A DNA stretch of 51,217 nt from Candidatus Dadabacteria bacterium (GTDB lineage Bacteria; Desulfobacterota_D; UBA1144; Nemesobacterales; CSP1-2), in the NCBI GenBank assembly GCA_040289575.1, contig PSLL01000004.1, forward strand, positions 50,002 through 101,218, given 5' to 3'. The notes below the pieces were generated by a model. The model did no database searches. It was not told the origin of the DNA and was given only the letters and a program-made list of their open reading frames with translations. Position numbers and translations under genes: made by a program. The stretch's first letter is position 1, and every line of letters starts with the position of its first letter. Below are positions 27,871-40,822 of the stretch, in pieces.

Positions 27871-28040
27871 GAAAATGAAACCCCTTTTTTATTTTAGCCG
27901 CAATTGAGCAAGGATTTACACAAATAGAATGATACACAATTCATAATACGACAAAGTACTTGCATGTGCCCTGCATCGTGTATCTTGCATCTTGTTGCCT
28001 TCTGATGATCTTCATTTGTGGCTAATTAACTTAGAATATG

Positions 28041-28122
28041 TGCGAGAGGGGGGAGTTGAACCCCCACGGGAAATCCCACTGGATCCTAAGTCCAGCGCGT
28101 CTGCCAGTTCCGCCACTCTCGC
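28041..28122 (-). tRNA. tRNA-Leu(TAG), CCA not encoded
   Basis: GCGAGAGTGGCGGAACTGGCAGACGCG-CTGGA-CTTAGGA-TCCAG, long variable arm, GTTCAACTC. Confidence 0.95.
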
Positions 28123-28173
28123 TTGCGGTTCCCTAAAATCCTCCCTCTTTGATCGCTACCCCAGATCCCGGAG

Positions 28174-28247
28174 TGGGCTGCGAGGGATTCGAACCCACGA
28201 CCCAGTGATTAAGAGTCACTTGCTCTACCAAGCTGAGCTAGCAGCCC
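28174..28247 (-). tRNA. tRNA-Lys(CTT), CCA not encoded
   Basis: GGGCTGCTAGCTCAG...AGTGA-CTCTTAA-TCACT...GTTCGAATC...GCAGCCCA. Confidence 0.95.
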
Positions 28248-28601
28248 ACTGTATCATTCCAATATCTTACAACACATTATGAATTTTCCAAATCCCTAAG
28301 GATGAAGGTTTCTTCCTTGTAAGCTCAATATTCAAATAACCTAAATATTCGTTTATCGCTACAATACAACTCCACTTTCACCTACCCTTGTTCCCGCTAT
28401 ATATCTGAGATCGTGAATTTAAGCTCTTTAATTAGTATGCCCGTGGGTGTTGAGAAAGGCGATTCTCACGTTCTTAATAGGCCTTTCGATTTTTCCGATT
28501 AGCTTTTCATGCTATTCTCAAGTCACATTTAAAGAAGAATCCCATTAAATTTAGTAGCACTTATTATAAACACGTTATTTTCAAAATCAACATTTCCCCT
28601 T

Positions 28602-28992
28602 TTAACAGTGATTCAATCGCAAAGACTCACCATCACTTTATGGGGTTTTCAACAAAACCTTTAAGTGCAACAGCGTTATTATGTTCTCTATCCTTTGCAC
28701 TGTAGATTAAAGTAAGATTCCCCCTTCGCCATTTCGGCGAGCCTTATAAGAAACCTCCTTTTTTCTTCGTTACCTGTGAATTCCTGTTTATACCTCTTAC
28801 AAAATTCCTTCCATCGAGAGGGAAGATGGGAAAACCATTTTCTAAGTTCAGTGCTTGGAGCAACTTCCTTTAACCACAGGTCAATCTTAATTTCCTCTTT
28901 TTTAAGCCCCCTTGGCCATAATTCGTCAACCAGAGCCCGTATTCCATAATCTTTTTCCACTTTATCATAAACTCTAATTTCGTCTTAATCAT
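28602..28992 (-). pseudogene. DUF488/YeaO-family protein with two frameshifts
   Basis: Pieces MIKTK / RVYD...[28 protein letters not shown] / [20 protein letters not shown] are separated by frame changes. Confidence 0.85.
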
Positions 28993-29150
28993 GATACACT
29001 ACCCCTTTTTAAGACATTCAACTCCAAATATAGTAAAGCCCTTCCAAAAGTCACCAATAAATCACACGGGGTTTTAAGATTATGGAGAAATACTCTTTAT
29101 AGCCCAATCTCCTGGGTTTGGAATTATCCTTTTTTATTAATCGGTATTTG

Positions 29151-29843
29151 TTAAATTTCTAATCTACTGCAATCACTCTTTAACAGCAATCTGATCCTGT
29201 CAAACACCACCGATACCACACGATCGCAACGTGTGGCATCAAACTGGAATGCACCCACAGTCGCAATCCCGATGCGTGAATAGATCTCTTCGCGCAGTAA
29301 AGCACGCGCCCTGTGCAAGCGTGTCTTGACGGTCTCCTCAGTAATGTCGAGACACTCAGCCATTTCAGCAGTGCTCATCCCCTCAATCTCCCTCGGCACG
29401 AAAACCGAACGATAACTCTCAGGCAGTGAATCAACCGCGGCTTCTAATACCGCCTTCAGTTCCCCGGTTAGTAATTGCTGCTCGGGATCAGGTGTTTTGG
29501 ATATACCCATACCCTCCCTCCATGATTTTGATACCAAGTCAATATCCACAAATCGGCCGCGTCGGCGAACCCGCGCCAAAGCCTCATTTACGGCGATCTT
29601 TGTCAGCCAGGTTGAGAATTTAGCCCGTCCAGAAAACTGATTAAGGTGTGTGTATGCATGGACGTAGGCGTCTTGCATCACATCCTCCGCCTCGCTGTCA
29701 TCCCCCAGTATGGCACGAGATACACGGTAGAGCCGCTGGTTGTACCGACGCATGAGGATTTCAAATAGCGTGATTTCACCGGCGAGTATTAGCCTCTCCA
29801 CCTCTTCGTCGGACATAGCATCGGCATTTGCTCCGGTACTCAT
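29151..29843 (-). CDS. ECF sigma factor with C-terminal F-x-F-x3-RCD extension
   Basis: Region 2 EAEDVMQDAY, FSTWLTKIAVN; region 4 TVKTRLHRAR; tail AFQFDATRCDRVV. Confidence 0.92.
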   Translation of the reverse strand: MSTGANADAMSDEEVERLILAGEITLFEILMRRYNQRLYRVSRAILGDDSEAEDVMQDAYVHAYTHLNQFSGRAKFSTWLTKIAVNEALARVRRRGRFVDIDLVSKSWREGMGISKTPDPEQQLLTGELKAVLEAAVDSLPESYRSVFVPREIEGMSTAEMAECLDITEETVKTRLHRARALLREEIYSRIGIATVGAFQFDATRCDRVVSVVFDRIRLLLKSDCSRLEI

Positions 29844-29885
29844 TACAGCTCAGCCCCCTGTGTGGTTTACCAACCCTAATATAAT

Positions 29886-29913
29886 ATAGAGTCATCTACA
29901 AACAAAAAGTTAC
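29886..29913 (-). promoter_or_regulatory. Putative autoregulatory ECF promoter GTAAC-N16-ACTCTAT
   Basis: Identical boxes and spacing to the divergent motif at 29933-29960. Confidence 0.7.
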
Positions 29914-29932
29914 GAGTTTTCTTCTCGAATCT

Positions 29933-29960
29933 GTAACCAATCCTTTCCTTAAAACTCTAT
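29933..29960 (+). promoter_or_regulatory. Putative ECF promoter GTAAC-N16-ACTCTAT for the 30013-31007 operon
   Basis: Mirror copy of 29886-29913; AAC-type -35 is typical of ECF promoters. Confidence 0.7.
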
Positions 29961-30012
29961 GTTCTATAGAGCAAAGATCAAATCTACTCTCAATTAAGAG
30001 GGAGGAATAGAA

Positions 30013-30438
30013 ATGAAGCGAATAAGCATAGGTTTAATGCTCTTGGCTCTCTGTCTTCTGGCTTTAGGAGGCAGTGCACAGACTGCTCTGTCACAGGAGA
30101 TGGCCCCTCCAGGAGGCAAGTACAAGAAAGTTAGCTCGCTTGTGAAATTGCCAGATTTTCTCCCCGGCCTCGGAACGCTTTATGTAGACCCAGACACACT
30201 ACCAGCAGGCCCATTCCTGGCCTATGACCGTGAAGGCCACCTTGCCAGCACAGTCTATATGATTCCACTTAAAGACATCAACGACCACAAGGCCTTCAAC
30301 AATCTGGCCGTTGCACAGGGACAAAAGGTAGACCACGTTGATATATACTATAGTGCGGGACATCCGGGCGTGCCCGAGCCGCACTATTACATCATACTTT
30401 GGTATATCTCACCTGAGAAGGCGGCAGCACTCCCGTAG
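30013..30438 (+). CDS. Exported TTHB210-like (DUF5602-related) protein
   Basis: Signal peptide; LPDFLPGLGTLYVDPDTLPAGPFLAYDR..DHV...GHPGVPEPHY closely recalls Thermus thermophilus TTHB210 (recognised from memory). Confidence 0.75.
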   Translation: MKRISIGLMLLALCLLALGGSAQTALSQEMAPPGGKYKKVSSLVKLPDFLPGLGTLYVDPDTLPAGPFLAYDREGHLASTVYMIPLKDINDHKAFNNLAVAQGQKVDHVDIYYSAGHPGVPEPHYYIILWYISPEKAAALP

Positions 30439-30446
30439 GAGGCATT

Positions 30447-31007
30447 ATGCCGACACGGCGAGAGTTCATCAAGACCGGCGGGTTGGCTCTCGTCGGCCTT
30501 GTATTCTACAACACACCTAGACCCCACACACCACACACGGCTCATGTTGTTGAGATCTATATGAAGAGCGATAATCTGGGCAGTAGGGTATGGTTTGATC
30601 CTATCGGAATATATATCGAACCCGGGCAAACGGTACGGTGGATTGTTGTTGAGAATGTACACACGACATCTGCATACCATCCTCGAAATAGCAACCATTC
30701 ACTGCGGATTCCCCCAAATGCTACCCCCTGGGATTCTGGATTTTTGTCACCCGGTGAACACTTTGATGTAAAACTCAAGACACAAGGTATCTACGATTAC
30801 TACTGTACGGCACATGAAGAGGCAGGCATGGTAGGGCGTATTATTGTCGGAAAGCCCACCGGACCAGGTGCTTTACCATTCAACTACTACGTGGGAAGAT
30901 CAGATACAACAAACTGGCGACCAGTACCTCCTGCAGCCCAGAAAGCATTTCCAAGCATAGAGCAGATAATGCGTGAAAAGGTTGTCCGACTCAGATGGAC
31001 AATATAA
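30447..31007 (+). CDS. Tat-exported type-1 blue copper protein (plastocyanin/azurin/halocyanin family)
   Basis: TRREFIK Tat motif; FDPIG...PGQTVRW; His in NVHT plus YYCTAHEEAGM (C-x2-H-x4-M). Confidence 0.9.
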   Translation: MPTRREFIKTGGLALVGLVFYNTPRPHTPHTAHVVEIYMKSDNLGSRVWFDPIGIYIEPGQTVRWIVVENVHTTSAYHPRNSNHSLRIPPNATPWDSGFLSPGEHFDVKLKTQGIYDYYCTAHEEAGMVGRIIVGKPTGPGALPFNYYVGRSDTTNWRPVPPAAQKAFPSIEQIMREKVVRLRWTI

Positions 31008-31030
31008 TGAATACTATGACGTAGATACCT

Positions 31031-31693
31031 TCAAAAGTAGACCAATCTATAAATTACAGGCCAGAGCAGGACAACAAAATACCAGAATATTCCGCATGTC
31101 TCTAAGTCAACCATATTCTTAGGAAATTTCTTTACTATTGCACGAATGGAAGCGGCAATTAGCCACAGACATGATATAAGAACATGAATAGCATGGAACC
31201 CTACAATTATATAGAATATAGAACCATATATACTCGATGTCATTGTAAGTCCATAGGCTACTAACTTAATCCATTCATTTTCCTGAAGAACAAGGAATAA
31301 AATTCCAAGAATTATTGTAAGGATAAGAAAAAAAGTCAGTTTTTTATAACTCGTATCCCCCTTGTGCCAATTTCTCCTGAAGAGAAACATCGTCAACCCA
31401 CTTAAAAGAAGAACGGCGGTATTTAAAGCAGTCGTTTGAGCAGGGTATCTTGGTTGGCCCGGAGGGGGCCAGGGAGAAAGGTTATGTTTATAAGCAAGGA
31501 ATGACCCGAGAAGTCCCCCAAATAGCATTATCTCAGAAAGTATAAAAAGCATTAATGCAAACCTGGCAAGGGCAAGGCGTGAGCGGAGATGATCATCTCC
31601 GCCATTTCTCCTTCCCATCCCAATATTGATAGGCTTAGACTTCTTTTCAACAGGTTGCCTTTTTATTCCTATTTCCGCAATCTGTTGCATCAT
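31031..31693 (-). CDS. Haem-copper oxidase subunit III, second copy
   Basis: FILSEIMLFGGL, NTAVLLLSG, GFHAIHV, FWYFVVLLW. ATG 31693 is coupled to the subunit IV stop. Confidence 0.9.
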   Translation of the reverse strand: MMQQIAEIGIKRQPVEKKSKPINIGMGRRNGGDDHLRSRLALARFALMLFILSEIMLFGGLLGSFLAYKHNLSPWPPPGQPRYPAQTTALNTAVLLLSGLTMFLFRRNWHKGDTSYKKLTFFLILTIILGILFLVLQENEWIKLVAYGLTMTSSIYGSIFYIIVGFHAIHVLISCLWLIAASIRAIVKKFPKNMVDLETCGIFWYFVVLLWPVIYRLVYF

Positions 31694-31995
31694 CTCTTTA
31701 AAGTCACAATAGCATCCGGCATAAACCCAAAGAACGCTATTATCAGGAGTGTTAATGGCACTAAAACGGCACATACTATCAGTATCTTTTCAAATCTTAG
31801 GTGCATAAAGTTCAGTGCTATCAAAACCGCTTTTATCCCCGCGAGGGCAAAGAGGATAAATGCGGCTAAATACCTAAACTCTATATGGTGCCTGGGATTC
31901 AGTATGACGGATGTTAGTATGCTCAATGTCGTAAGCCCGCAAAGTACAATCCATACAAGAAGATAGTTGGGATGAGTAAGGTGTTTATTAGCCAT
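31690..31995 (-). CDS. Cytochrome c oxidase subunit IV
   Basis: Three TMs, KAVLIALNFMHL; AAGGAGG RBS. Confidence 0.88.
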   Translation of the reverse strand: MANKHLTHPNYLLVWIVLCGLTTLSILTSVILNPRHHIEFRYLAAFILFALAGIKAVLIALNFMHLRFEKILIVCAVLVPLTLLIIAFFGFMPDAIVTLKR

Positions 31996-32022
31996 TTTTA
32001 AACCTCCTTTAATCTTGCACCA

Positions 32023-32643
32023 TCATGAGAGATAGAAGAGCGGAAGAAGAAACACCCAAACAATGTCCACGAAATGCCAGAAGAGTCCTGCATTCTCAAC
32101 AAGAGAACCCGGGTTACCCGGTTTTTTCTTACGGCTAATTAGGATTAGGACAACTGTATTTATAACGGTTCCTGTAAAAACGTGTACCGCGTGAAAACCC
32201 GTTAAACCGTAATAAAAAGCCCAGAACGGCCCCGAATGGAAACCATATCCGTGTTCGATCTCTCCCGCATATTCTATAGCTTTAATCGCTAAGAACAAAA
32301 GACCTGATATGATCGTAAGAAATATATATAGATATGCAGACCTAAGATTCCTCTCATCCACCATTTTATGCGCGAGAACGATTGTGAAGCTACCCGTAAT
32401 AAGCACGAATGTGTTTATAGAACCTGTTAAGGCGTTAGTTTCACCAGAGAACTCATGCCACTGCGGATAACTCAGCCTAAAAAGAACGCAGGTTATAATG
32501 AGTCCGCCGAAAATAAGGACTTCACCGGATAGAAACACCCACATCCCCACCTTTGATGATGGTATGCCGACTGAAGACTGACCAACTGCGCTCTGCGATT
32601 CCAAAGACTCTATTCCTACATTAGTGTTTTCCAATTGGTGCAT
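32023..32643 (-). CDS. Haem-copper oxidase subunit III, first copy
   Basis: GMWVFLSGEVLIFGG, TGFHAVHV, WHFVDIVW. Confidence 0.92.
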   Translation of the reverse strand: MHQLENTNVGIESLESQSAVGQSSVGIPSSKVGMWVFLSGEVLIFGGLIITCVLFRLSYPQWHEFSGETNALTGSINTFVLITGSFTIVLAHKMVDERNLRSAYLYIFLTIISGLLFLAIKAIEYAGEIEHGYGFHSGPFWAFYYGLTGFHAVHVFTGTVINTVVLILISRKKKPGNPGSLVENAGLFWHFVDIVWVFLLPLFYLS

Positions 32644-34348
32644 CTGTTCCCTCCCTAAATACCTCCTCTCTAGAAATGAGTATACCCTGGGGCTTGAAGT
32701 CTTCTCGCTCCTCTTCCGGAGAATACTCGTAAGGGTCGTTTACAACTATGGGAACCATGCCGTTCCAGTTATGGTGGGGCGGGGGGGATTCCGCAAGCCA
32801 CTCAAGGGTAGTAGCCTTCCACGGATTGCGTTCCGCCTGCTTGCCCTTAAATATGCTTACAAAGAAATTGATGATAAATGGGGCCTGGGATGCGATAAGT
32901 AATATTGCCCCAACAGTTGATAGGACATGAATCCATTGAAAGTGCCTTAGGTAATCAATGTGTGTAATGTCATAATATCTCCTCGGACCCCCTGCAATTC
33001 CTAAAAAGAATAGAGGAAATGCAAAGATATTAAACCCTATAAAGGTTCCCCAGAAGTGAACCTTGCCCCAGGATTCACTCATCTTTCTCCCAAACATCTT
33101 GGGAAACCAGTAGTATATACCCGCAAAGCTAGCCAAAATGACAGATGGAAAGATCGTATAGTGAAAATGGGCTATTACGAAATACGTATCGTGGAGGTAA
33201 ACATCTAATACTTGAGCTCCCAGAAATAATCCCGTAAGGCCGCCGATGATAAATGCAACAAAGCTCCCCAATGCGAAAAGAAAGGAGGAGGTAAACCTTA
33301 TTGAACCATTCCATAATGTTAAGGCAAGACAGACAAGTATTACAGAAAACGGAACGGAGATTGCAATTGTTGTAACAGCAAATGGGTATGAAAGGGACGG
33401 ATTCATTCCTGAGACAAACATGTGATGACCCCATACTACAAAGCTCAGTATGGCCGAAGCTATTGTCGCATATACAATTGATTTATATCCAAATATAGGT
33501 TTTCTGGTATGGGACGCAAAAACCTCGGCTATTATCCCAAGCCCGGGAATTAAAACCACATAAACCTCCGGATGCCCGAAGAACCAGAAGATATGTTGCC
33601 ACAAGAGCGGATCCCCCTGACTCTGAGCCGTCACCCTGAAAAATGAGGTTCCCACAATTACATCAAGCAAAAGAAACCCAACTCCGGCCACAAGCGGGGT
33701 TACGGAAAGCAGAAAAATAAGGGCAGCAATAAACTGCATCCATACAATTATAGGAAGCCGCATCATACTCAAGCCCCTTGTACGAAGGTTAATAGTCGTA
33801 GTAATGTAGTTTATTCCGCCCATAAGCATGGAGGCAAACTCAAGAATGAGGGCGAAAAGAAAAAGGATCCCCCCCATCTTGGCTCCTGTAAATCGCGGAT
33901 CCGCCGAAAGCGGTGGGTAGATTGTCCAACCAAAGGGCGCCGGGCCGCCGGGGACAAAGAACGATGAAAAGAGAACTATACTTGAGATGAAAAACACCCA
34001 GTATGAGAGCATATTCAATCCTGGAAATGCCATATCCTTTGCGCCCACCATAAGCGGTATGCAGAGATTCGCAAACGCGCCTATTAAAAGCGGCATGGCA
34101 ACCCAGAAGATCATAATTGCTCCGTGCATTGTAACAGACGCATTGTATGACTCCGGGGTAAGTATCGCTCCGGGTGATGCAAGCTCGGTCCTGAAAAACA
34201 ACGCTAGTAGAGCCGCTGTTAGCGCCCATATAAGGGCAGTAATAAGGTACTGAATAGCGATTACCTTATGGTCTGTTGAAAATATATATCTCCTAATAAA
34301 ACCCTGGTGTTCGGTGTGCGCATCTTCAATTGTGATTATACTCTCCAT
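32621..34348 (-). CDS. ctaD: Cytochrome c oxidase subunit I, A1-type, lacking K-channel residues
   Basis: TDHK, MHG, DMAFPGLN, FFGHPEVY, WGHHMF, HDTYFVIAHFHY, PRRY. Confidence 0.96.
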   Translation of the reverse strand: MESIITIEDAHTEHQGFIRRYIFSTDHKVIAIQYLITALIWALTAALLALFFRTELASPGAILTPESYNASVTMHGAIMIFWVAMPLLIGAFANLCIPLMVGAKDMAFPGLNMLSYWVFFISSIVLFSSFFVPGGPAPFGWTIYPPLSADPRFTGAKMGGILFLFALILEFASMLMGGINYITTTINLRTRGLSMMRLPIIVWMQFIAALIFLLSVTPLVAGVGFLLLDVIVGTSFFRVTAQSQGDPLLWQHIFWFFGHPEVYVVLIPGLGIIAEVFASHTRKPIFGYKSIVYATIASAILSFVVWGHHMFVSGMNPSLSYPFAVTTIAISVPFSVILVCLALTLWNGSIRFTSSFLFALGSFVAFIIGGLTGLFLGAQVLDVYLHDTYFVIAHFHYTIFPSVILASFAGIYYWFPKMFGRKMSESWGKVHFWGTFIGFNIFAFPLFFLGIAGGPRRYYDITHIDYLRHFQWIHVLSTVGAILLIASQAPFIINFFVSIFKGKQAERNPWKATTLEWLAESPPPHHNWNGMVPIVVNDPYEYSPEEEREDFKPQGILISREEVFREGTDAPIGKH

Positions 34349-35045
34349 AAGCTGTATACTCCGATTTATCGTTTTCCTCCAACCACGCCCTATAATTCTT
34401 TAAAAATCTTTCATATTCGTCTTTACTGACAACCTTTAATTTTGCCTGCATCATAAAATGCCCCGGACCGCAAAGCTGTGTACATGTAATAGGATAATCG
34501 CCCACCTTCTTTGATATAAACCACTCCGTGGTTTCTCTGCCAGGGACCGCATCGTATTTCACTCTTAGATTAGGTATGAAGAGTGAATGTATAACATCCC
34601 CGGAGGTAAGTGTGAGAATTACCGTTGTATCTACAGGAACTACAAGATAGTTACCAAGGGTAAAGTCATCATTGGTCCCGAATTTTCTATCCAGTCCGGG
34701 ATAAACAAAGCTCCAGAAGAACTGCCTTCCAATGACCCTTGTCTCTACGTAATTTTTATGTTCTTCAATCAATTCTTTTCTACCCTGTATCACATGGCTC
34801 CACCCTACAGAACTAAAAGAGACCATAACAATGTCAAGTATAAGCAAAACTACATCCAAGTATACGAGCTTAGAAATGAGCCCTAATTTGCGCGTTGCTC
34901 TGGGATTTTTAGATTTACGGAATGCAATCAGAGAGTATCCGATTATTACAAATGAGAGTATAGCTACAGCAACGGTTATGACAGATACTAAGATCATAGT
35001 ATTATCAATCCAATACCCGTATGCAGAAATATCCTTTGGCCACAT
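34326..35045 (-). CDS. ctaC: Cytochrome c oxidase subunit II (CuA)
   Basis: Two TMs, GRQFFWSFVYPG, DVIHS, CTQLCGPGHFMM. Confidence 0.94.
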   Translation of the reverse strand: MWPKDISAYGYWIDNTMILVSVITVAVAILSFVIIGYSLIAFRKSKNPRATRKLGLISKLVYLDVVLLILDIVMVSFSSVGWSHVIQGRKELIEEHKNYVETRVIGRQFFWSFVYPGLDRKFGTNDDFTLGNYLVVPVDTTVILTLTSGDVIHSLFIPNLRVKYDAVPGRETTEWFISKKVGDYPITCTQLCGPGHFMMQAKLKVVSKDEYERFLKNYRAWLEENDKSEYTAYGEYNHN

Positions 35046-35047
35046 AT

Positions 35048-36241
35048 CTAGCTTGAGTTCTCCTTATGATACTTTTCATGTAGAAATTCTACATAAGAGA
35101 CAAGGTTCCATATTTGATCAGGGGGAAGTGAAAAACCAGGCATCGGTGTCCCTTTTATACCAAGCCGTATCGTTCTGTATATCTGTTCTGGCGACCCCTT
35201 TTTGAATGGTTCGGTTGCAAAATTCCTCGGCAATATATCTATGGGCTTGCCGTCTTGCCCAAGCCAATTGGTTTCCAGATCAAGTCGCTTCGCATTCTTC
35301 CCTAAATCCTCTATATCACCGTGGCACACACCGCATGCGGCTTGAAAAAACGTTCTGCCCTTCTGTATCCTATCATCTACAGGTTTAAAATTGTCGGTTT
35401 TCAAAGCCTCAGCCAAGTCATCCGGCACCTTCAGGTCAACGACGGCAGGGTCTGGTTTCTTCATTCCGAACCTCCATTGCATGTATCCGAAGCCCATAAC
35501 ATATTCAGTAAGCGCTTTGATCTCCTCTTCGGTTAGATCGGCAAACCCCGGCATAGGGGTTCCAGGAAGACCATTTCTTATCGTATCCTCTATATCTTCC
35601 TCCAGAGCGGGACCTTGCTGGGCCGAGCTAAATTTAAAAACCACTTTTCCGTCTTTTACTATATTCCCATCACCTCTAATAAAATGGGATTCACCGGTAA
35701 AATCCCTTGGGGCAACCGCGAGTTTTTCAGGGGTCCTCGGATGGCCGTTTCCCTTCTCGCCATGACACGATACACACCGGTATTCGTAAAGGTTCTGCCC
35801 TTCTTCCATGAGTTTAAAATCAGGCTCCCAGTATATCTCTAGTTCTCCCAAAAGGTTTTTAATATCCTCAATTTGTGGAATATCTGGATGTGATCCGTTG
35901 GACAGAAGGGCTATGGTGCCTTCGACTAGACTGTTGTTTTCATCTTTGGGCAGAACCTGTTTTAGTTTGCCAACGTTTGATCTCACCTCCTCTAGTCTCT
36001 CTTTCAGACCCTCTACTTTTTCTCCTTCCATCTTTGTCTTTTTAAGCCCGTCCACTGCGGCATCTATTGCTGAATCTATTTCTTTTACCTTAGCGGTTCT
36101 AAATGAAATCTCCTTCGCTCTGAGCGCCTCCTCTTTAACCTCCTGAGGATACAAACTCGAACCCGCCTTAATGAAAAAAAATGATAGAGACATGGCCAGT
36201 GCTATACAAAGAACGGCTATTACAGAAAGGAAAACCCTCAT
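35048..36241 (-). CDS. Membrane-anchored di-haem c-type cytochrome with helical N-terminal stalk
   Basis: CVSCH and CGVCH, each followed by PRxF and GTPMPGF; N-terminal TM; first gene of the oxidase operon. Confidence 0.9.
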   Translation of the reverse strand: MRVFLSVIAVLCIALAMSLSFFFIKAGSSLYPQEVKEEALRAKEISFRTAKVKEIDSAIDAAVDGLKKTKMEGEKVEGLKERLEEVRSNVGKLKQVLPKDENNSLVEGTIALLSNGSHPDIPQIEDIKNLLGELEIYWEPDFKLMEEGQNLYEYRCVSCHGEKGNGHPRTPEKLAVAPRDFTGESHFIRGDGNIVKDGKVVFKFSSAQQGPALEEDIEDTIRNGLPGTPMPGFADLTEEEIKALTEYVMGFGYMQWRFGMKKPDPAVVDLKVPDDLAEALKTDNFKPVDDRIQKGRTFFQAACGVCHGDIEDLGKNAKRLDLETNWLGQDGKPIDILPRNFATEPFKKGSPEQIYRTIRLGIKGTPMPGFSLPPDQIWNLVSYVEFLHEKYHKENSS

Positions 36242-36287
36242 CGCAGGAACCACCGTTCAGATTCTAAAAAGCTAAACGACTAATATA

Positions 36288-36315
36288 ATAGACTACCTTA
36301 AGTCGAATGTGTTTC
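36288..36315 (-). promoter_or_regulatory. Putative ECF promoter GAAAC-N16-AGTCTAT upstream of the oxidase operon
   Basis: 10 of 12 positions and the spacer match the motif pair at 29886-29960. Confidence 0.5.
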
Positions 36316-36402
36316 AACTGACTTTTTATATCTTTCGATACTTCTGACATAAGTTTCGGCGTATATTCCGTTGTATTGTGTCATAACAAATTCTTATGGT
36401 GA

Positions 36403-36432
36403 GGTGGGTGTATATGTATATTACACCCACCT
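36403..36432. terminator. Hairpin downstream of 36466-36780
   Basis: AGGTGGGTGTA...TACACCCACCT inverted repeat. Confidence 0.55.
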
Positions 36433-36465
36433 TCCTTCTCAAATTTTAATTACTTAGCCCATTGG

Positions 36466-36780
36466 CTAATTCTCCATACCCTCAGAACCACCCATATTCT
36501 TGATATTGTGGATCACGGCTGCCCTTCTATTTCTCATTCCAATAATGACATTATCACCAACCCGAGCCCTTTCGAGTTGTAATGGTGCAGCGGGTATAAC
36601 TATGTGTATTGTACCCCTGCTGTCCTTGACTACGAGACTATCCCCTTCAATATCATTTATCTGACCCATAAGGGTTATCTCCCGGGTGTTTGTCTCTGTT
36701 TTTGTACCATTAGCAAACGAGCTTACTCCGCCAAGGGTGAGCCCCGCCGCTATAAAAATAGATATAAGTAACAATCTCAT
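36466..36780 (-). CDS. Small exported protein, probable OB-fold
   Basis: AAGGAGGT RBS, signal peptide, GQINDIEGDSLVVKD...RVGDNVII beta pattern. Confidence 0.7.
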   Translation of the reverse strand: MRLLLISIFIAAGLTLGGVSSFANGTKTETNTREITLMGQINDIEGDSLVVKDSRGTIHIVIPAAPLQLERARVGDNVIIGMRNRRAAVIHNIKNMGGSEGMEN

Positions 36781-36972
36781 CGGACTTACCTCCTTCTTAC
36801 CCTATTCTATGGATAAGCTTAATTAAATCATCGGATGGCCATTTCTCAATCCCGGATAACTGCCTACACCGTTAGTATTTTGCATACACCGTACCTTTTC
36901 ATCTTCTTATAAATACCCCTTTGCCTCATGCCGGAATGTTCGGCAACAAGCCTCACGCTCCCTTTAAACCTC

Positions 36973-37155
36973 TTAAGAAGTGCCAATAAATATTCCTTTT
37001 CTGCCGCACCCCGGACACCTCATATAGCAGAGTTCCTTTATAGCCCGCTCCTGCCTTTCCAAAATCTCCTGCTTTATTTTCTCTTTGAGACGCTTTATCT
37101 TTTCTGCATTCTCTCTAACAAAATATTCATCCTCTATTTTTCTTAACTTGTCCAA
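36973..37155 (-). pseudogene. Truncated coiled-coil plus zinc-ribbon protein (only first CxxC kept)
   Basis: EDEYF...IKELCYMRCPGCG, then a premature stop. Confidence 0.55.
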
Positions 37156-37649
37156 CCCCCTAAATTAACTGTCTTATAAAATCAATAAATCCCGCTCCCC
37201 CCACACCCGGTGTTATGAGAACTTTGAATAGGATTTTTTTATGACTAGGTAGCAATAAGAAGCCATACTGTCTAGTCGTCTCCAGTTGTATGGTAAGCTC
37301 AAGTTCGAGTCCGGGCATTATGAGCCGAGCATATTATGCTCCTCTAACATAGTGCATAGGCCATGCCAGAATAAAGAAGATTCAATACCGAGAAATTCTC
37401 ATGTATTTACTGGCAATTATGATGGACATGATTTATACCAGTTGATTAAATACGAACTTTTCGTTCGTAATAAGAACTCTTAGTTCAAACTTAAAAGTCA
37501 TGCATATGTCAATTTTCATTTTGAAATATTACATTAATAAATATAGTCCTCACATATACTTAGATAGACTACGAGTCTGCCCATTGTCTTAAACGTGAAA
37601 GTGCCTTAATGATACATCTCAATGGGAAATTGGGATTAGGATAGATTTA

Positions 37650-38086
37650 GTGAAGCTCCCCCACCACAGGTGGGGACTTCTTTAAAAAATCCTTATGAGC
37701 AGCGTAGTAGCCTCTAAAAAAGACTTAACTGTCTACAAGAAATCTCCTCATACTTATGATACTCTATGTACTTGCGTATCTGCTCTGCTGTAACCTCATC
37801 TCCCACTGTCTTTACAAAATACCCTCTCTCCCAGAAATTGATTCGCCATAGCTTTAGCTCCTTCCTATCTATCAATCTCCATCTGGTGATTTGAAGCTAT
37901 CTCCTGAAAGATTTCTTCAACTCGACTTCTTATCTCTTTCCTATCTATCCACCCCCTGTATTTAGGAGTCCAAACAATGTGATATTTGGTATCATGTGGG
38001 GTACGTTTCAGTGTCATACAAAACTGTATCACACTGAGTGTGCCTTTCATCCCCCACTACAAATGGGGGCTTTCAGGCACAATTCA
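37650..38086 (-). mobile_element. IS200/IS605-family element, internally deleted, both ends intact
   Basis: Left end TTAC|...AAAG-CCCCCA..TGGGGG; right end GAAG-TCCCCACC..GGTGGGGG..TCAC|; tnpA remnant inside. Confidence 0.9.
37714..38017 (-). pseudogene. tnpA: Y1 (HUH) transposase remnant
   Basis: KYHIVWTPKYR N-terminus and FWERGYFVKTVG...IRKYIEYH C-terminus; HUH segment deleted; internal stop. Confidence 0.9.
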
Positions 38087-38108
38087 GTAATTTTAGAAAC
38101 TTAGATTC

Positions 38109-38169: not shown

Positions 38170-38702
38170 ATGAGAGGTTTTGTTTGGGGATTAATAATTG
38201 GAATGATTTTTCTCTTATCGGCTGGACTCAGCACCGAATCAGCTGAAGAATGGCAAACCCTAGAGCTCAGGATATTTGGTGTATGTCCGGCCTGTGATAG
38301 CGATGTCAAATCAAGGGTCTTAAGCATTCCCGGAGTCGCTGAGGCTAATCTTGATCTTATCAAAAAGAAACTCTTTGTGACATTTGATCTGGAATCTGTA
38401 AGTGAGACGAAAATAATAATAGCTCTGGAGGAGGGGGGTATGAAGTAAGGCGTCCATTTAGGAAGAAGAGGCTTGAGAGGGTGATCCTTGAGGTCTCTGG
38501 AATAAAGGATAAAAGCGAGATAACCGAGATCGAAAGGACGTTCTATGCCTTCTATGATGTAGATAGAGTGGAGATATCAAAGCACTCGGGTAATCTCATT
38601 ACAACCATAGATTTTAGAAGGGATGGGCTTGACCCAGGGCAGTTGGTTATGTCACTGAAGGACAGCTTGCCCCATGCATGTGTGGAAATAATACCAAGCT
38701 GA
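38170..38702 (+). pseudogene. Exported heavy-metal-associated (HMA, CxxC) two-domain protein split by a frameshift
   Basis: Signal peptide; IFGVCPACD...IPGV. One more G in the run at 38433-38438 joins both ORFs via EEGGYEVRRPFRKKRLERVILEV. Confidence 0.75.
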
Positions 38703-39502: not shown

Positions 39503-40822
39503 ATGAAAAAGAAACTCATAATGATTGGCTTGGCATTGGCGATGCTTTTTAGCATTGAATATGCAAGGCAAGTTCAAGCCCACACGACAGTTAGCTTCAA
39601 TCTGTTTTTCGATGCCCTTGCCCCCTATGGCAACTGGGTATCAACGCCGGACTACGGATATGTATGGTCTCCCACTGATGTGGGACCTGATTGGGAGCCT
39701 TACACTAACGGATACTGGGTCTGGACAGATTACGGATGGACATGGGTCTCTTATGAGCCTTGGGGCTGGGCCCCGTTTCACTATGGAAGATGGGTATATA
39801 CCGATTATTATGGATGGGTCTGGATACCCGGTACTGTTTGGGCACCTGCATGGGTTACATGGTATAAAAGCCCTGACTACATAGGATGGGCACCCCTTCC
39901 ACCCGACGAGCGATTCTCGCTCGAAGTAGGCATAAGTTTTTCCAACCGTAATTACTATGTACCATACAGGGATGTTGTGTTTGTTCCTTCGCACGCTTTC
40001 CTAAGTACTCACATTCGTAATGTAATCGTTCCGCGATCGAGAAATATTACTATTATCAGAAACACGAAAGTCATAAACAACATAACAATTCAAAATAACA
40101 GGGTTATAAATCGGGGCCCTGATGTGAATTTTGTTGAGAGAGCTACAAGAGCAAGGATTCAAAAGGTGAATCTGGTTGATAGAGATGTAGACCAGCGTAC
40201 GGTTATCAGAGGCGGTAAAATTAACCAAATAAAAGGAAAGGACTTTTATGTATACCGTCCCGATGTGATTAGGAAGGGAAATGAAGCACCCGTAATTAAA
40301 AAGAATGTTGAAAAAAATACTATCCAAAACAGAAACAGAAATGTAGAAATCGAGAATAAAAACAGGAAAAATGTAGAAATCCGAAACGAGGGCTACCTCA
40401 CACCTAATCAAGGGCATACGGTATTTAATAGGGATGCCGAAAACAACCCTATGAAAATCAAGAATAAAAATAAAGAAGTCTACAACCCAAATGAAAAAAA
40501 GATTAAGAAACAGGAAAGAATTGAAAACCGGAATAACCCTCAGAACCCGAAGCCGCATCAACAGTACCCAATGAGACGGGATGATAATAATAGAAAAGGG
40601 AATCCTTTTGTAATGCAAGATACCTTTAAATCCCACAGCCCTGTTATACGTCCAGAAAACCGCCAGCCGGTATATAGAAATACCGAGAAAGAGGCTCCAC
40701 ATTATCAATTTAATTCGGACATTAAAGGACAGAAGTTCCAGAAGAAGGACTTTGGACAGCACCCAAACAACAGAAACCTGGATTCACGCCGAAACCATAA
40801 GCAAATCGATCGGAACGGTTAA
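39503..40822 (+). CDS. Exported Trp/Tyr/Pro-rich repeat protein (DUF6600-like) with disordered tail
   Basis: Signal peptide; LAPYGNW, WEPYTNGYW, PWGWAPFHYGRW, WAPAWVTW, GWAPLPP; N/K/R-rich C-terminus. Confidence 0.85.
   Translation: MKKKLIMIGLALAMLFSIEYARQVQAHTTVSFNLFFDALAPYGNWVSTPDYGYVWSPTDVGPDWEPYTNGYWVWTDYGWTWVSYEPWGWAPFHYGRWVYTDYYGWVWIPGTVWAPAWVTWYKSPDYIGWAPLPPDERFSLEVGISFSNRNYYVPYRDVVFVPSHAFLSTHIRNVIVPRSRNITIIRNTKVINNITIQNNRVINRGPDVNFVERATRARIQKVNLVDRDVDQRTVIRGGKINQIKGKDFYVYRPDVIRKGNEAPVIKKNVEKNTIQNRNRNVEIENKNRKNVEIRNEGYLTPNQGHTVFNRDAENNPMKIKNKNKEVYNPNEKKIKKQERIENRNNPQNPKPHQQYPMRRDDNNRKGNPFVMQDTFKSHSPVIRPENRQPVYRNTEKEAPHYQFNSDIKGQKFQKKDFGQHPNNRNLDSRRNHKQIDRNG

Follow-up and report, generated by a model that had tools for sequence, protein, structure and literature searches.

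This analysis concerns a haem-copper oxidase operon in a 51,217-nucleotide stretch of Candidatus Dadabacteria DNA (assembly GCA_040289575.1, contig PSLL01000004.1, positions 50,002 to 101,218 of the forward strand; hereafter the window). Judging from sequence comparisons, we found that the canonical K path for protons is lost from both subunit I (COX1, the query) and subunit II (COX2) across a widespread clade of such enzymes, and that two invariant buried carboxylates, Glu170 of subunit I and Asp71 of subunit II, have been gained. These new carboxylates may replace the canonical channel. A-family oxidases are reviewed as having two conserved proton channels, with K-channel mutants that are nearly dead (Murali et al. 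2024; PMC8239185; here and below, statements from published sources extend to the excerpts that we had of them). We consider it an even call whether the present enzyme is a working cytochrome c:O2 oxidoreductase that obtains protons without the canonical K path, most likely through a modified D channel.

The features on which the argument turns are these (positions are those of the window; TM2, second transmembrane helix of subunit II; P side, positive side of the membrane; N side, negative side):

32621..34348, minus strand: subunit I (COX1), A1-type, 575 amino acids (PF00115, E 1.5e-136)
34326..35045, minus strand: subunit II (COX2) with CuA domain (PF00116, E 2.8e-17), without the canonical TM2 entry Glu
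33338..33340, minus strand: Ile337 at the K-channel Lys site, codon ATA
33347..33349, minus strand: Phe334 at the K-channel Thr site, codon TTT
33527..33529, minus strand: Ala274 at the S255/S299 site, codon GCC
33839..33841, minus strand: Glu170 of helix IV, codon GAG, at the site of Rhodobacter sphaeroides S197, invariant (121/121)
34833..34835, minus strand: Asp71 of subunit II, codon GAC, buried in TM2, an interface residue in the complex model
34854..34856, minus strand: Asp64 of subunit II, codon GAT, one helical turn above the canonical Glu column, in the interface list
33356..33358, minus strand: Ser331 at the site of R. sphaeroides A356, invariant (121/121)
33008..33010, minus strand: Phe447 at the P-side end of helix XI, Phe in 113/121 clade sequences and His in 70/72 Lys-containing sequences

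Canonical K-path residues are missing from both subunits

The best solved relatives of subunit I are aa3-type CtaD/CoxI chains (E 1e-125 to 1e-112), and HMMER sets helix VIII of the query, 'isvpfsvilv', opposite 'iavptgikff' of the solved mycobacterial CtaD. The codons and this alignment agree on Phe in place of the Thr and Ile in place of the Lys, as an initial annotation made from the letters of this DNA had read them, and the S255 site is Ala, as it had also stated. The bovine residue numbers (T316, K319 and S255) are the conventional ones; the equivalences used here come from alignments.

We found that the substitutions are shared by the whole clade, which was aligned as the query plus its 120 nearest homologues (54-90% identity, 121 sequences). 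Lys occupies the K site in 0/121, where the column reads I36 L26 T19 M15 V10 S6 F4 Q2 A2 C1 with the query included. The Thr site is Phe in 114/121 sequences and Val in the other 7, the Ser of the S299 site is kept in 4/121, and the S365 site is Ala in 75, Ser in 20 and other residues in the rest. The initial annotation had named strain-specific damage, with close homologues retaining the Lys, as the finding that would overturn it, and none of the 120 nearest homologues has the Lys.

The same holds for subunit II. The Glu of the TM2 motif 'LExxWT' is missing from 10/10 Lys-less loci, among them the query, which bears out the earlier statement that the entry motif is lacking here, and it is present in nearly all Lys-containing loci listed. 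This residue is E101 in R. sphaeroides and serves as the entry of the K path (PMC8239185, PMC10341450). With the TM2 Glu and the helix VIII Lys both gone, the K path has been given up in both subunits together.

Everything else that defines the enzyme was found intact, as the initial annotation had claimed for the D channel, the haem and copper ligands, the cross-linking Tyr and the Arg pair. The six His ligands (H75, H259, H308, H309, H394 and H396) are each present in 121/121 sequences, as are Glu261 and the cross-link Tyr263 of the motif GHPEVY at 258-263 (the cross-link itself is predicted from sequence) and the Arg pair R456/R457. Along the D channel, D105, N94, N112, S115 and N180 are each 121/121, S173 is 97/121 and Y34 is invariant. 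An AlphaFold2 model of subunit I has 12 helices with a mean predicted local distance difference test (pLDDT) value of 85.2 and a predicted template modelling (pTM) score of 0.89. The features of the A1 subtype were found in the His ligands, the Tyr and Glu of helix VI, the D channel and the CuA-bearing subunit II, but not in the K channel. By these sequence features, the query is an A1 variant and not a canonical member of the subtype, being A1 in every respect except the K channel. The assignment to the A1-type haem-copper oxidases made earlier is upheld by the PF00115 match, the HPEVY Glu and the invariant ligands. Its description of the K channel as erased is correct in that every canonical K-path side chain is gone, and it may be too strong in that Ser331, Asp71 and Asp64 lie on a possible route.

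The query belongs to a widespread Lys-less clade under purifying selection

The query was placed in a tree built with FastTree (LG+gamma, midpoint root) from 237 sequences, 38/275 having been omitted for covering <80% of the profile. The input comprised 113/150 representatives at 50% identity, 80/80 genome loci, 42/43 sampled clade members, the query and the A2 enzyme of the same genome. We found that the clade of the query holds 53 sequences, all Lys-less, with support 1.0, and that its sister, at support 0.977, is a 39-sequence Lys-containing clade that includes Bradyrhizobium CoxN-type enzymes. Hence, the Lys was lost from an ancestor that had it.

Of the 150 representative clusters closest to the query, 148 could be aligned at the Lys site, and 60 of these are Lys-less (I 18, L 12, Q 11, V 7, M 4, others) and 88 have the Lys; for one representative, P0206, the position of the site differs between the pairwise and hidden Markov model (HMM) alignments. 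With 60/148 nearby clusters Lys-less, the exception is common and not marginal. The Lys-less clusters are spread over several separate branches of the tree. Hence, loss of the Lys is recurrent in the A family.

The homologues carry source labels of Planctomycetes, Chloroflexi, Deltaproteobacteria, Latescibacterota, Binatia and others. Species-genome and metagenome scans for COX1, from each of which the best 80 loci were kept, gave at least 145 loci with a readable COX1 among these best loci, 23 of them Lys-less and 122 with the Lys. Records titled Puniceicoccaceae, Gemmatimonadales, Myxococcota, Longimicrobiales, Flavobacteriaceae and Eisenbacteria are among the Lys-less loci. Several members of this A-type clade carry the source label 'cbb3-type cytochrome c oxidase subunit I'.

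Relative to two relatives (98% and 91% identical), the ratio of nonsynonymous to synonymous substitution rates (dN/dS) is 0.040 and 0.076 for COX1, 0.121 and 0.077 for COX2, and 0.059 and 0.069 for COX3. The oxidase genes are under strong purifying selection.

A helix IV glutamate accompanies the loss of the Lys

A column-by-column comparison of 53 Lys-less with 72 Lys-containing sequences showed Glu at position 170 in 53/53 of the former vs 0/72 of the latter. The offset from the query to R. sphaeroides numbering is a constant +27 through D132, N121, N139, S142 and N207, residues that, by their usual numbering, belong to conserved motifs. Hence, Glu170 falls at S197. In a molecular dynamics study, S197 is listed as lining the D channel together with S200, S201, N207 and E286 (PMC10341450).

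Across the representative clusters, Glu stands at this column in 12/148, and all 12 are Lys-less (12/60 vs 0/88). They come from about 4-5 separate lineages. This convergence is the strongest hint that the putative extra D-channel carboxylate is tied to dispensing with the Lys.

Two more subunit I columns separate the two groups. Phe447 replaces a His that is near-constant in Lys-containing sequences, at a site adjoining residues that touch subunit II, and Phe occupies this column in 19/50 Lys-less clusters vs 5/63 clusters with the Lys in the representative tree. Thr398, one turn past the haem a3 His, also discriminates Lys-less from Lys-containing sequences. Glu275, at the bovine H256 site, was rejected as a candidate for a compensating entry residue, since Lys-containing enzymes also commonly have Asp or Glu there.

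An invariant aspartate of subunit II is predicted to face subunit I

Asp71 was found in 20/20 clade COX2 sequences, in 19/19 Lys-less loci with a COX2 and in 32/32 nearest COX2 homologues (40-91% identical). The 'LExxWT' motif occurs in 0/32 of these homologues, and from the 33rd match onwards the canonical motif is back and Asp71 is gone. Another Lys-less subclade supplies the exceptions among these later matches, namely five sequences that are offset in the MAFFT alignment. Asp64 is Asp in 30/32 of the nearest homologues and His in a sister subclade that reads 'PH'; a third subclade is non-polar at 64 and has a second Asp at 75 instead.

The CuA ligands H153, C188, C192, H196 and M199 are invariant in 20/20 clade COX2. 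The CuA loop at 34476-34490 reads CTQLC, with Gln where most relatives have a Glu that also binds the Mg/Mn site. A link between this Gln and the loss of the K path was dropped, since Glu occurs in other Lys-less COX2 and Gln in some of the Lys-containing ones.

A model of the subunit I and II complex reached a score of 0.88, and the best of 3 controls 0.00. The mark for this score is passed by 116/157 solved complexes and 2/215 mismatched pairs and is rough here, with our own alignments supplied. At least 99% of contacts are shared between the runs, and the pLDDT of the partner is at least 83. Subunit I-II complexes have already been solved, so the pass may reflect memory, and the model was used only to name partner-facing residues. 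In subunit II, the TM2 residues touching COX1 are 57-58, 60-61, 63-64, 67-68, 71, 74-75 and 77-79; in helix VIII, those touching COX2 are 328-329, 331-332, 335-336 and 338-340, and 334 and 337 are not listed. In the modelled antiparallel register (i+j about 399-400), Asp64 would lie at the height of 335/336, which stand between the sites of the former Thr and Lys, and Asp71 would lie at that of 328/329, at roughly the depth of Tyr263 by published heights.

On the helix VIII side, the Ser331 column in Lys-containing sequences is Ala in 51, Gly in 17 and Ser in 4 (n=72). Ser331 presumably occupies the same position as S309 of the ba3 oxidase. A356, the R. sphaeroides residue at this site, is listed among the residues lining the K channel (PMC10341450), and S309 of ba3 is named by Murali et al. 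(2024).

In a sister subclade (loci L010-L013, L018, L024, L065 and L147, and protein P0121), the helix VIII motif 'PIAE(M/L)' puts a Glu immediately ahead of the former Lys site. Together with the subunit II His of 'PH', in the Asp64 column, this Glu could form a His-Glu pair at the subunit I/II interface, level with the lost Lys.

Candidate routes for protons

On the reading that we prefer, the six genes would encode an A-family, A1-subtype cytochrome c:O2 oxidoreductase whose D channel would supply the protons that the K path normally brings in during the reductive half-cycle. Glu170 would be a second buried D-channel carboxylate, at the S197 site and just below the gating Glu261, and Asp71 of subunit II might add or replace a route. 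The enzyme would then be an A-type oxidase with one channel, the converse of the B-type enzymes, whose sole channel is K-like. The more novel proposal, that the D channel is the only N-side route, made possible by a Glu170 that evolved convergently with each loss of the Lys, or else that an inter-subunit route is built on the Asp of subunit II, is one that we hold tentatively and at rather less than an even chance. D-channel-only chemistry had been put forward in the initial annotation; it is plausible, and the invariant Glu170 supports it, as an argument from sequence.

Several points weigh against supply through the D channel. Canonical K-channel mutants made in the laboratory are nearly inactive despite an intact D channel. 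Hence, a D channel is not known to be enough by itself. A D-channel route also leaves the invariant Asp71 of subunit II unexplained. The lineages with Glu170 are few and related and are drawn from the clusters nearest the query, so that 12/60 vs 0/88 is a count and not a statistical test. The helix IV Glu of one of them, a lineage of about 840 amino acids in which the Lys has become Gln or His, lies one residue later in the HMM alignment and may be non-equivalent. The equivalence to S197 rests on alignment offsets and conventional motif numbering, and the nearness of Glu170 to Glu261 rests on alignment and not on distances in the model. Finally, mutating residues at the ends of either channel abolishes activity (PMC8239185).

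The main rival, which we regard as possible, if rather unlikely, is that the K path has instead been rebuilt, with N-side entry along the interface of subunits I and II via Asp64 (or His) and Asp71, and then via Ser331/Thr327 to Tyr263. Asp71 is invariant in the clade and absent from COX2 of the 'LExxWT' type, Asp64 is present in most of the nearest homologues and is His in the 'PH' subclade, and residues 64 and 71 are spaced i, i+7 on the same helix face as the canonical Glu column (i-4), a face that the complex model sets against helix VIII. Ser331 (121/121) stands in place of the K-channel-lining A356, and the sister subclade has a Glu at 336, beside the Lys site. Such a path would have to contend with the old lumen, however, which bulky hydrophobic residues at 334 and 337, both outside the interface list, would fill. 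Asp64 is not universal, the third subclade being non-polar there with Asp75 instead; Asp71 is seen in a single lineage and hence lacks convergent support; and the modelled route rests on residue positions, not on side-chain geometry or waters.

It is improbable that the chemical protons of the reductive phase come from the P side, as in the nitric oxide reductase (NOR) cNOR, with Asp71 closing, on the inner side, a short stripe of polar residues that would run through the outer half of TM2. The invariant Trp82 stands at the outer end of TM2, and Asp71 precedes it by just 11 residues; the stretch past Asp71 is polar (Ser76, Ser78 and Ser79 in the query; Asp75/Arg/Asp in another subclade). Phe447, which replaces the P-side His of Lys-containing enzymes, shows that the P side has been remodelled, and cNOR is without conserved N-side channels (Murali et al. 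2024). The fully conserved D channel nevertheless argues for N-side uptake and pumping, and uptake of chemical protons from the P side is not known for A-family enzymes. An enzyme of this kind would conserve less energy.

More improbable still is a change of substrate, whereby the enzyme would reduce NO or peroxide and would not be a respiratory O2 reductase. The genome does have other oxidases able to cover O2 respiration (an A2-type enzyme with the Lys, a cbb3-like enzyme and a B-like or NOR-like one), and laboratory K-channel mutants keep their peroxide-driven steps. The CuB His triad, the cross-link Tyr and Glu261 are all 121/121, however, and the operon supplies a CuA subunit and a cytochrome c donor, as in aa3/caa3 oxidases. 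O2 reductases are marked out by the cross-link Tyr and the CuB His triad, both of which NORs are without (Murali et al. 2024), and the query retains the Tyr and shows no Glu ligand pattern of the FeB type, a NOR feature in the same source. The suggestion of NO or H2O2 as substrate in the initial annotation thus finds no support in the sequence, with the His triad and the Tyr kept; the observation that it reported is real, and its interpretation is half right.

That the operon is a decaying or inactive paralogue with a frame open by chance is scarcely credible and is contradicted, since the position of the operon in a variable island near tRNA genes and insertion sequence (IS)-like fragments, and its absence from 39/41 related genomes, are set against dN/dS of 0.04-0.12 in three subunits, substitutions shared across 54-90% identity and many phyla, a conserved six-gene order and invariant catalytic residues.

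If either the D-channel-only route or the inter-subunit route is true, nature provides an exception to the two-channel rule for the A family that is selectable and comes with a defined compensating residue, and the long-debated division of labour between D and K channels becomes directly testable by swapping one or two residues. Glu170 of subunit I and Asp71 of subunit II are concrete residues for asking whether the work of two channels can be done by one. The enzyme also raises the questions of what the change costs in proton pumping and why the variant transfers into organisms that already own canonical oxidases. For annotation, enzymes of the clade are counted as ordinary aa3 or mislabelled 'cbb3-type', which would distort oxidase counts in metagenome surveys.

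The operon and its genomic setting

The six genes are packed tightly on the minus strand, with neighbours that overlap or sit a few bases apart. Beside those for subunits I and II, they are:

35048..36253, minus strand: membrane-anchored dihaem cytochrome c, 401 amino acids, with two CxxCH motifs; first gene of the operon (Pfam Cytochrome_CBB3/Cytochrom_C, in two stretches)
32023..32643, minus strand: subunit III-like protein (COX3), 206 amino acids (PF00510, E 5.1e-15)
31690..31995, minus strand: prokaryotic subunit IV (COX4), 101 amino acids (PF03626, E 2.4e-09)
31031..31693, minus strand: second subunit III-like protein (COX3'; PF00510, E 3.1e-24)

The likely start of the second COX3 is the ATG at 31693, which overlaps the stop of COX4 (ATGA). 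The order COX2-COX1-COX3-COX4-COX3' was found in 4/4 Lys-less loci scanned with Pfam (L009, L010, L015 and L018) and also in the metagenome locus L089. Upstream of COX2, three of these four loci have a cytochrome c gene, as L089 also does, and the fourth has a UbiA-family gene. A haem A synthase gene is present in the same genome as the query. Homologues of its Lon protease, 80-88% identical, carry the labels Thermodesulfobacteriota or Candidatus Dadabacteria.

Among the 41 genomes of the same genus, family and order that were searched, the own genome included, the Lys-less enzyme occurs in 2/41, namely the own genome and one congener (98% identical protein). The remaining related genomes gave only 38-44% identical matches, and the four of these that were examined all have the canonical Lys. 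When three relatives were compared by DNA, 28631-36303 was matched only in the congener. The variable segment (28631-38100) begins just after tRNA-Leu(tag) and tRNA-Lys(ctt) at 28040-28247, and multi-copy repeats and fragments resembling an IS200-type transposase (open reading frames (ORFs) 37714-37875 and 37865-38050, read by eye) follow the operon segment. The patchy presence of the enzyme and nearest homologues labelled as other phyla indicate acquisition by transfer. Hence, the oxidase operon looks like part of a transferred island.

The operon is flanked by genes for a TTHB210-like protein and a cupredoxin of the plastocyanin/azurin family with a twin-arginine translocation (Tat) signal, and for an extracytoplasmic function (ECF) sigma factor (30013-31007, plus strand; 29151-29843, minus strand). 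These genes were rejected as parts of the operon, for they lie beside it here and in the congener and not in L089, which is 90% identical. A Cyc2-like outer-membrane cytochrome or a rus-like layout was looked for upstream of the operon, and none was found there; the region at 36.3-39.5 kb has only small ORFs, IS200-like fragments and proteins with a heavy-metal-associated (HMA) domain. At 38170-38702 (plus strand) stand two small adjoining ORFs, the first an HMA-domain protein with a CxxC motif and a signal-like N-terminus, which could be a copper chaperone near the oxidase genes. A DUF6600 protein at 39503-40822 (plus strand) has an N-terminal domain rich in Trp/Tyr and a long low-complexity tail rich in Asn/Lys/Arg. 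The ORF of 96 amino acids listed at 27992-28282 (plus strand) is spurious and runs through both tRNA genes.

Several further haem-copper enzymes are encoded in the same 3.06-Mb genome (contigs C59, C86, C88 and C116; loci L001 and L003-L008). On contig C59, a haem A synthase gene adjoins that of an A2-type subunit I ('WFYSHPAVY') in which the canonical Lys is kept, and C86 has a cbb3-like subunit of 480 amino acids. A B-like or NOR-like subunit ('WYFGHPLVYFWLMPAY') is split across two frames on C88, and COX1 on C116 is in at least 5 fragments with stops.

Comparison with known systems

Lys-less A-family oxidases are already in print, as the initial annotation had suspected. In acidophilic Fe2+ oxidisers and their relatives, the COX1 Lys is replaced by residues such as Ile, the subunit II Glu is replaced and the D channel is kept (bioRxiv 10.1101/2020.03.01.968255). 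In that preprint, Degli Esposti et al. name Thioclava and metagenome-assembled genomes of Actinobacteria and Chloroflexi among the Lys-less relatives and class the enzymes of the Fe2+ oxidisers as A2, on the deepest branch of the A family; the journal version describes K-channel variants and repeated losses in archaea (PMC8239418, Front Microbiol 2021). A Lys-less oxidase has also been noted in Ferrigenium straubiae, its meaning being called unclear (bioRxiv 10.64898/2026.01.22.701106). In the excerpts of this literature, the A1 clade beside CoxN, the helix IV Glu and the subunit II Asp were not found described, and the supplementary figures may include clade members. Like the enzymes of the Fe2+ oxidisers, as these excerpts describe them, the query has a hydrophobic residue for the Lys, a replaced subunit II entry Glu and a kept D channel. 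Those enzymes are described as A2, with no Glu in helix VI, and as deepest-branching; the query has the A1 Glu, which speaks against its belonging to them, and nests beside the CoxN type, though the two groups may overlap.

Membership in the cNOR, qNOR or eNOR families was rejected by the criteria of Murali et al. (2024), as the Tyr and the CuB His triad are 121/121.

The canonical A1 aa3/caa3 oxidases (7rh6/6adq, 1ar1, 1m56 and 1occ) share with the query the 12-helix subunit I, the ligands, HPEVY, the D channel, the Arg pair and the CuA-bearing subunit II. Compared with them, the query is without the Lys, Thr and Ser of the K path and its entry Glu, and it has Glu170, Ser331, Phe447 and Asp71 of subunit II.

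The nearest Lys-containing sister is the CoxMNOP-type 'alternative cytochrome c oxidase' (Bradyrhizobium CoxN; L027, L028, L033, L041 and others). CoxMNOP reportedly also has two subunit III-like genes (coxO and coxP), and one member of the Lys-less clade, P0016, bears the source label 'Alternative cytochrome c oxidase subunit 1'. In contrast to the query, the CoxN type keeps 'PTAIKVYNW', with both Thr and Lys, and 'LEWW' in subunit II, and it has Phe at 170 and His at 447. Membership in CoxMNOP was rejected, for the query is sister to the CoxN clade and not inside it (0.977, 1.0), and CoxN keeps the Lys, the Thr and the COX2 Glu.

B-type enzymes run on one proton channel (Murali et al. 2024; PMC8239185). 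Membership in the B family was rejected on the presence of the D channel and the weak similarity to ba3, whose chains match the query at E 1e-10 to 1e-13. The B family (ba3) keeps a K-like channel and is without the D channel; the query is the reverse.

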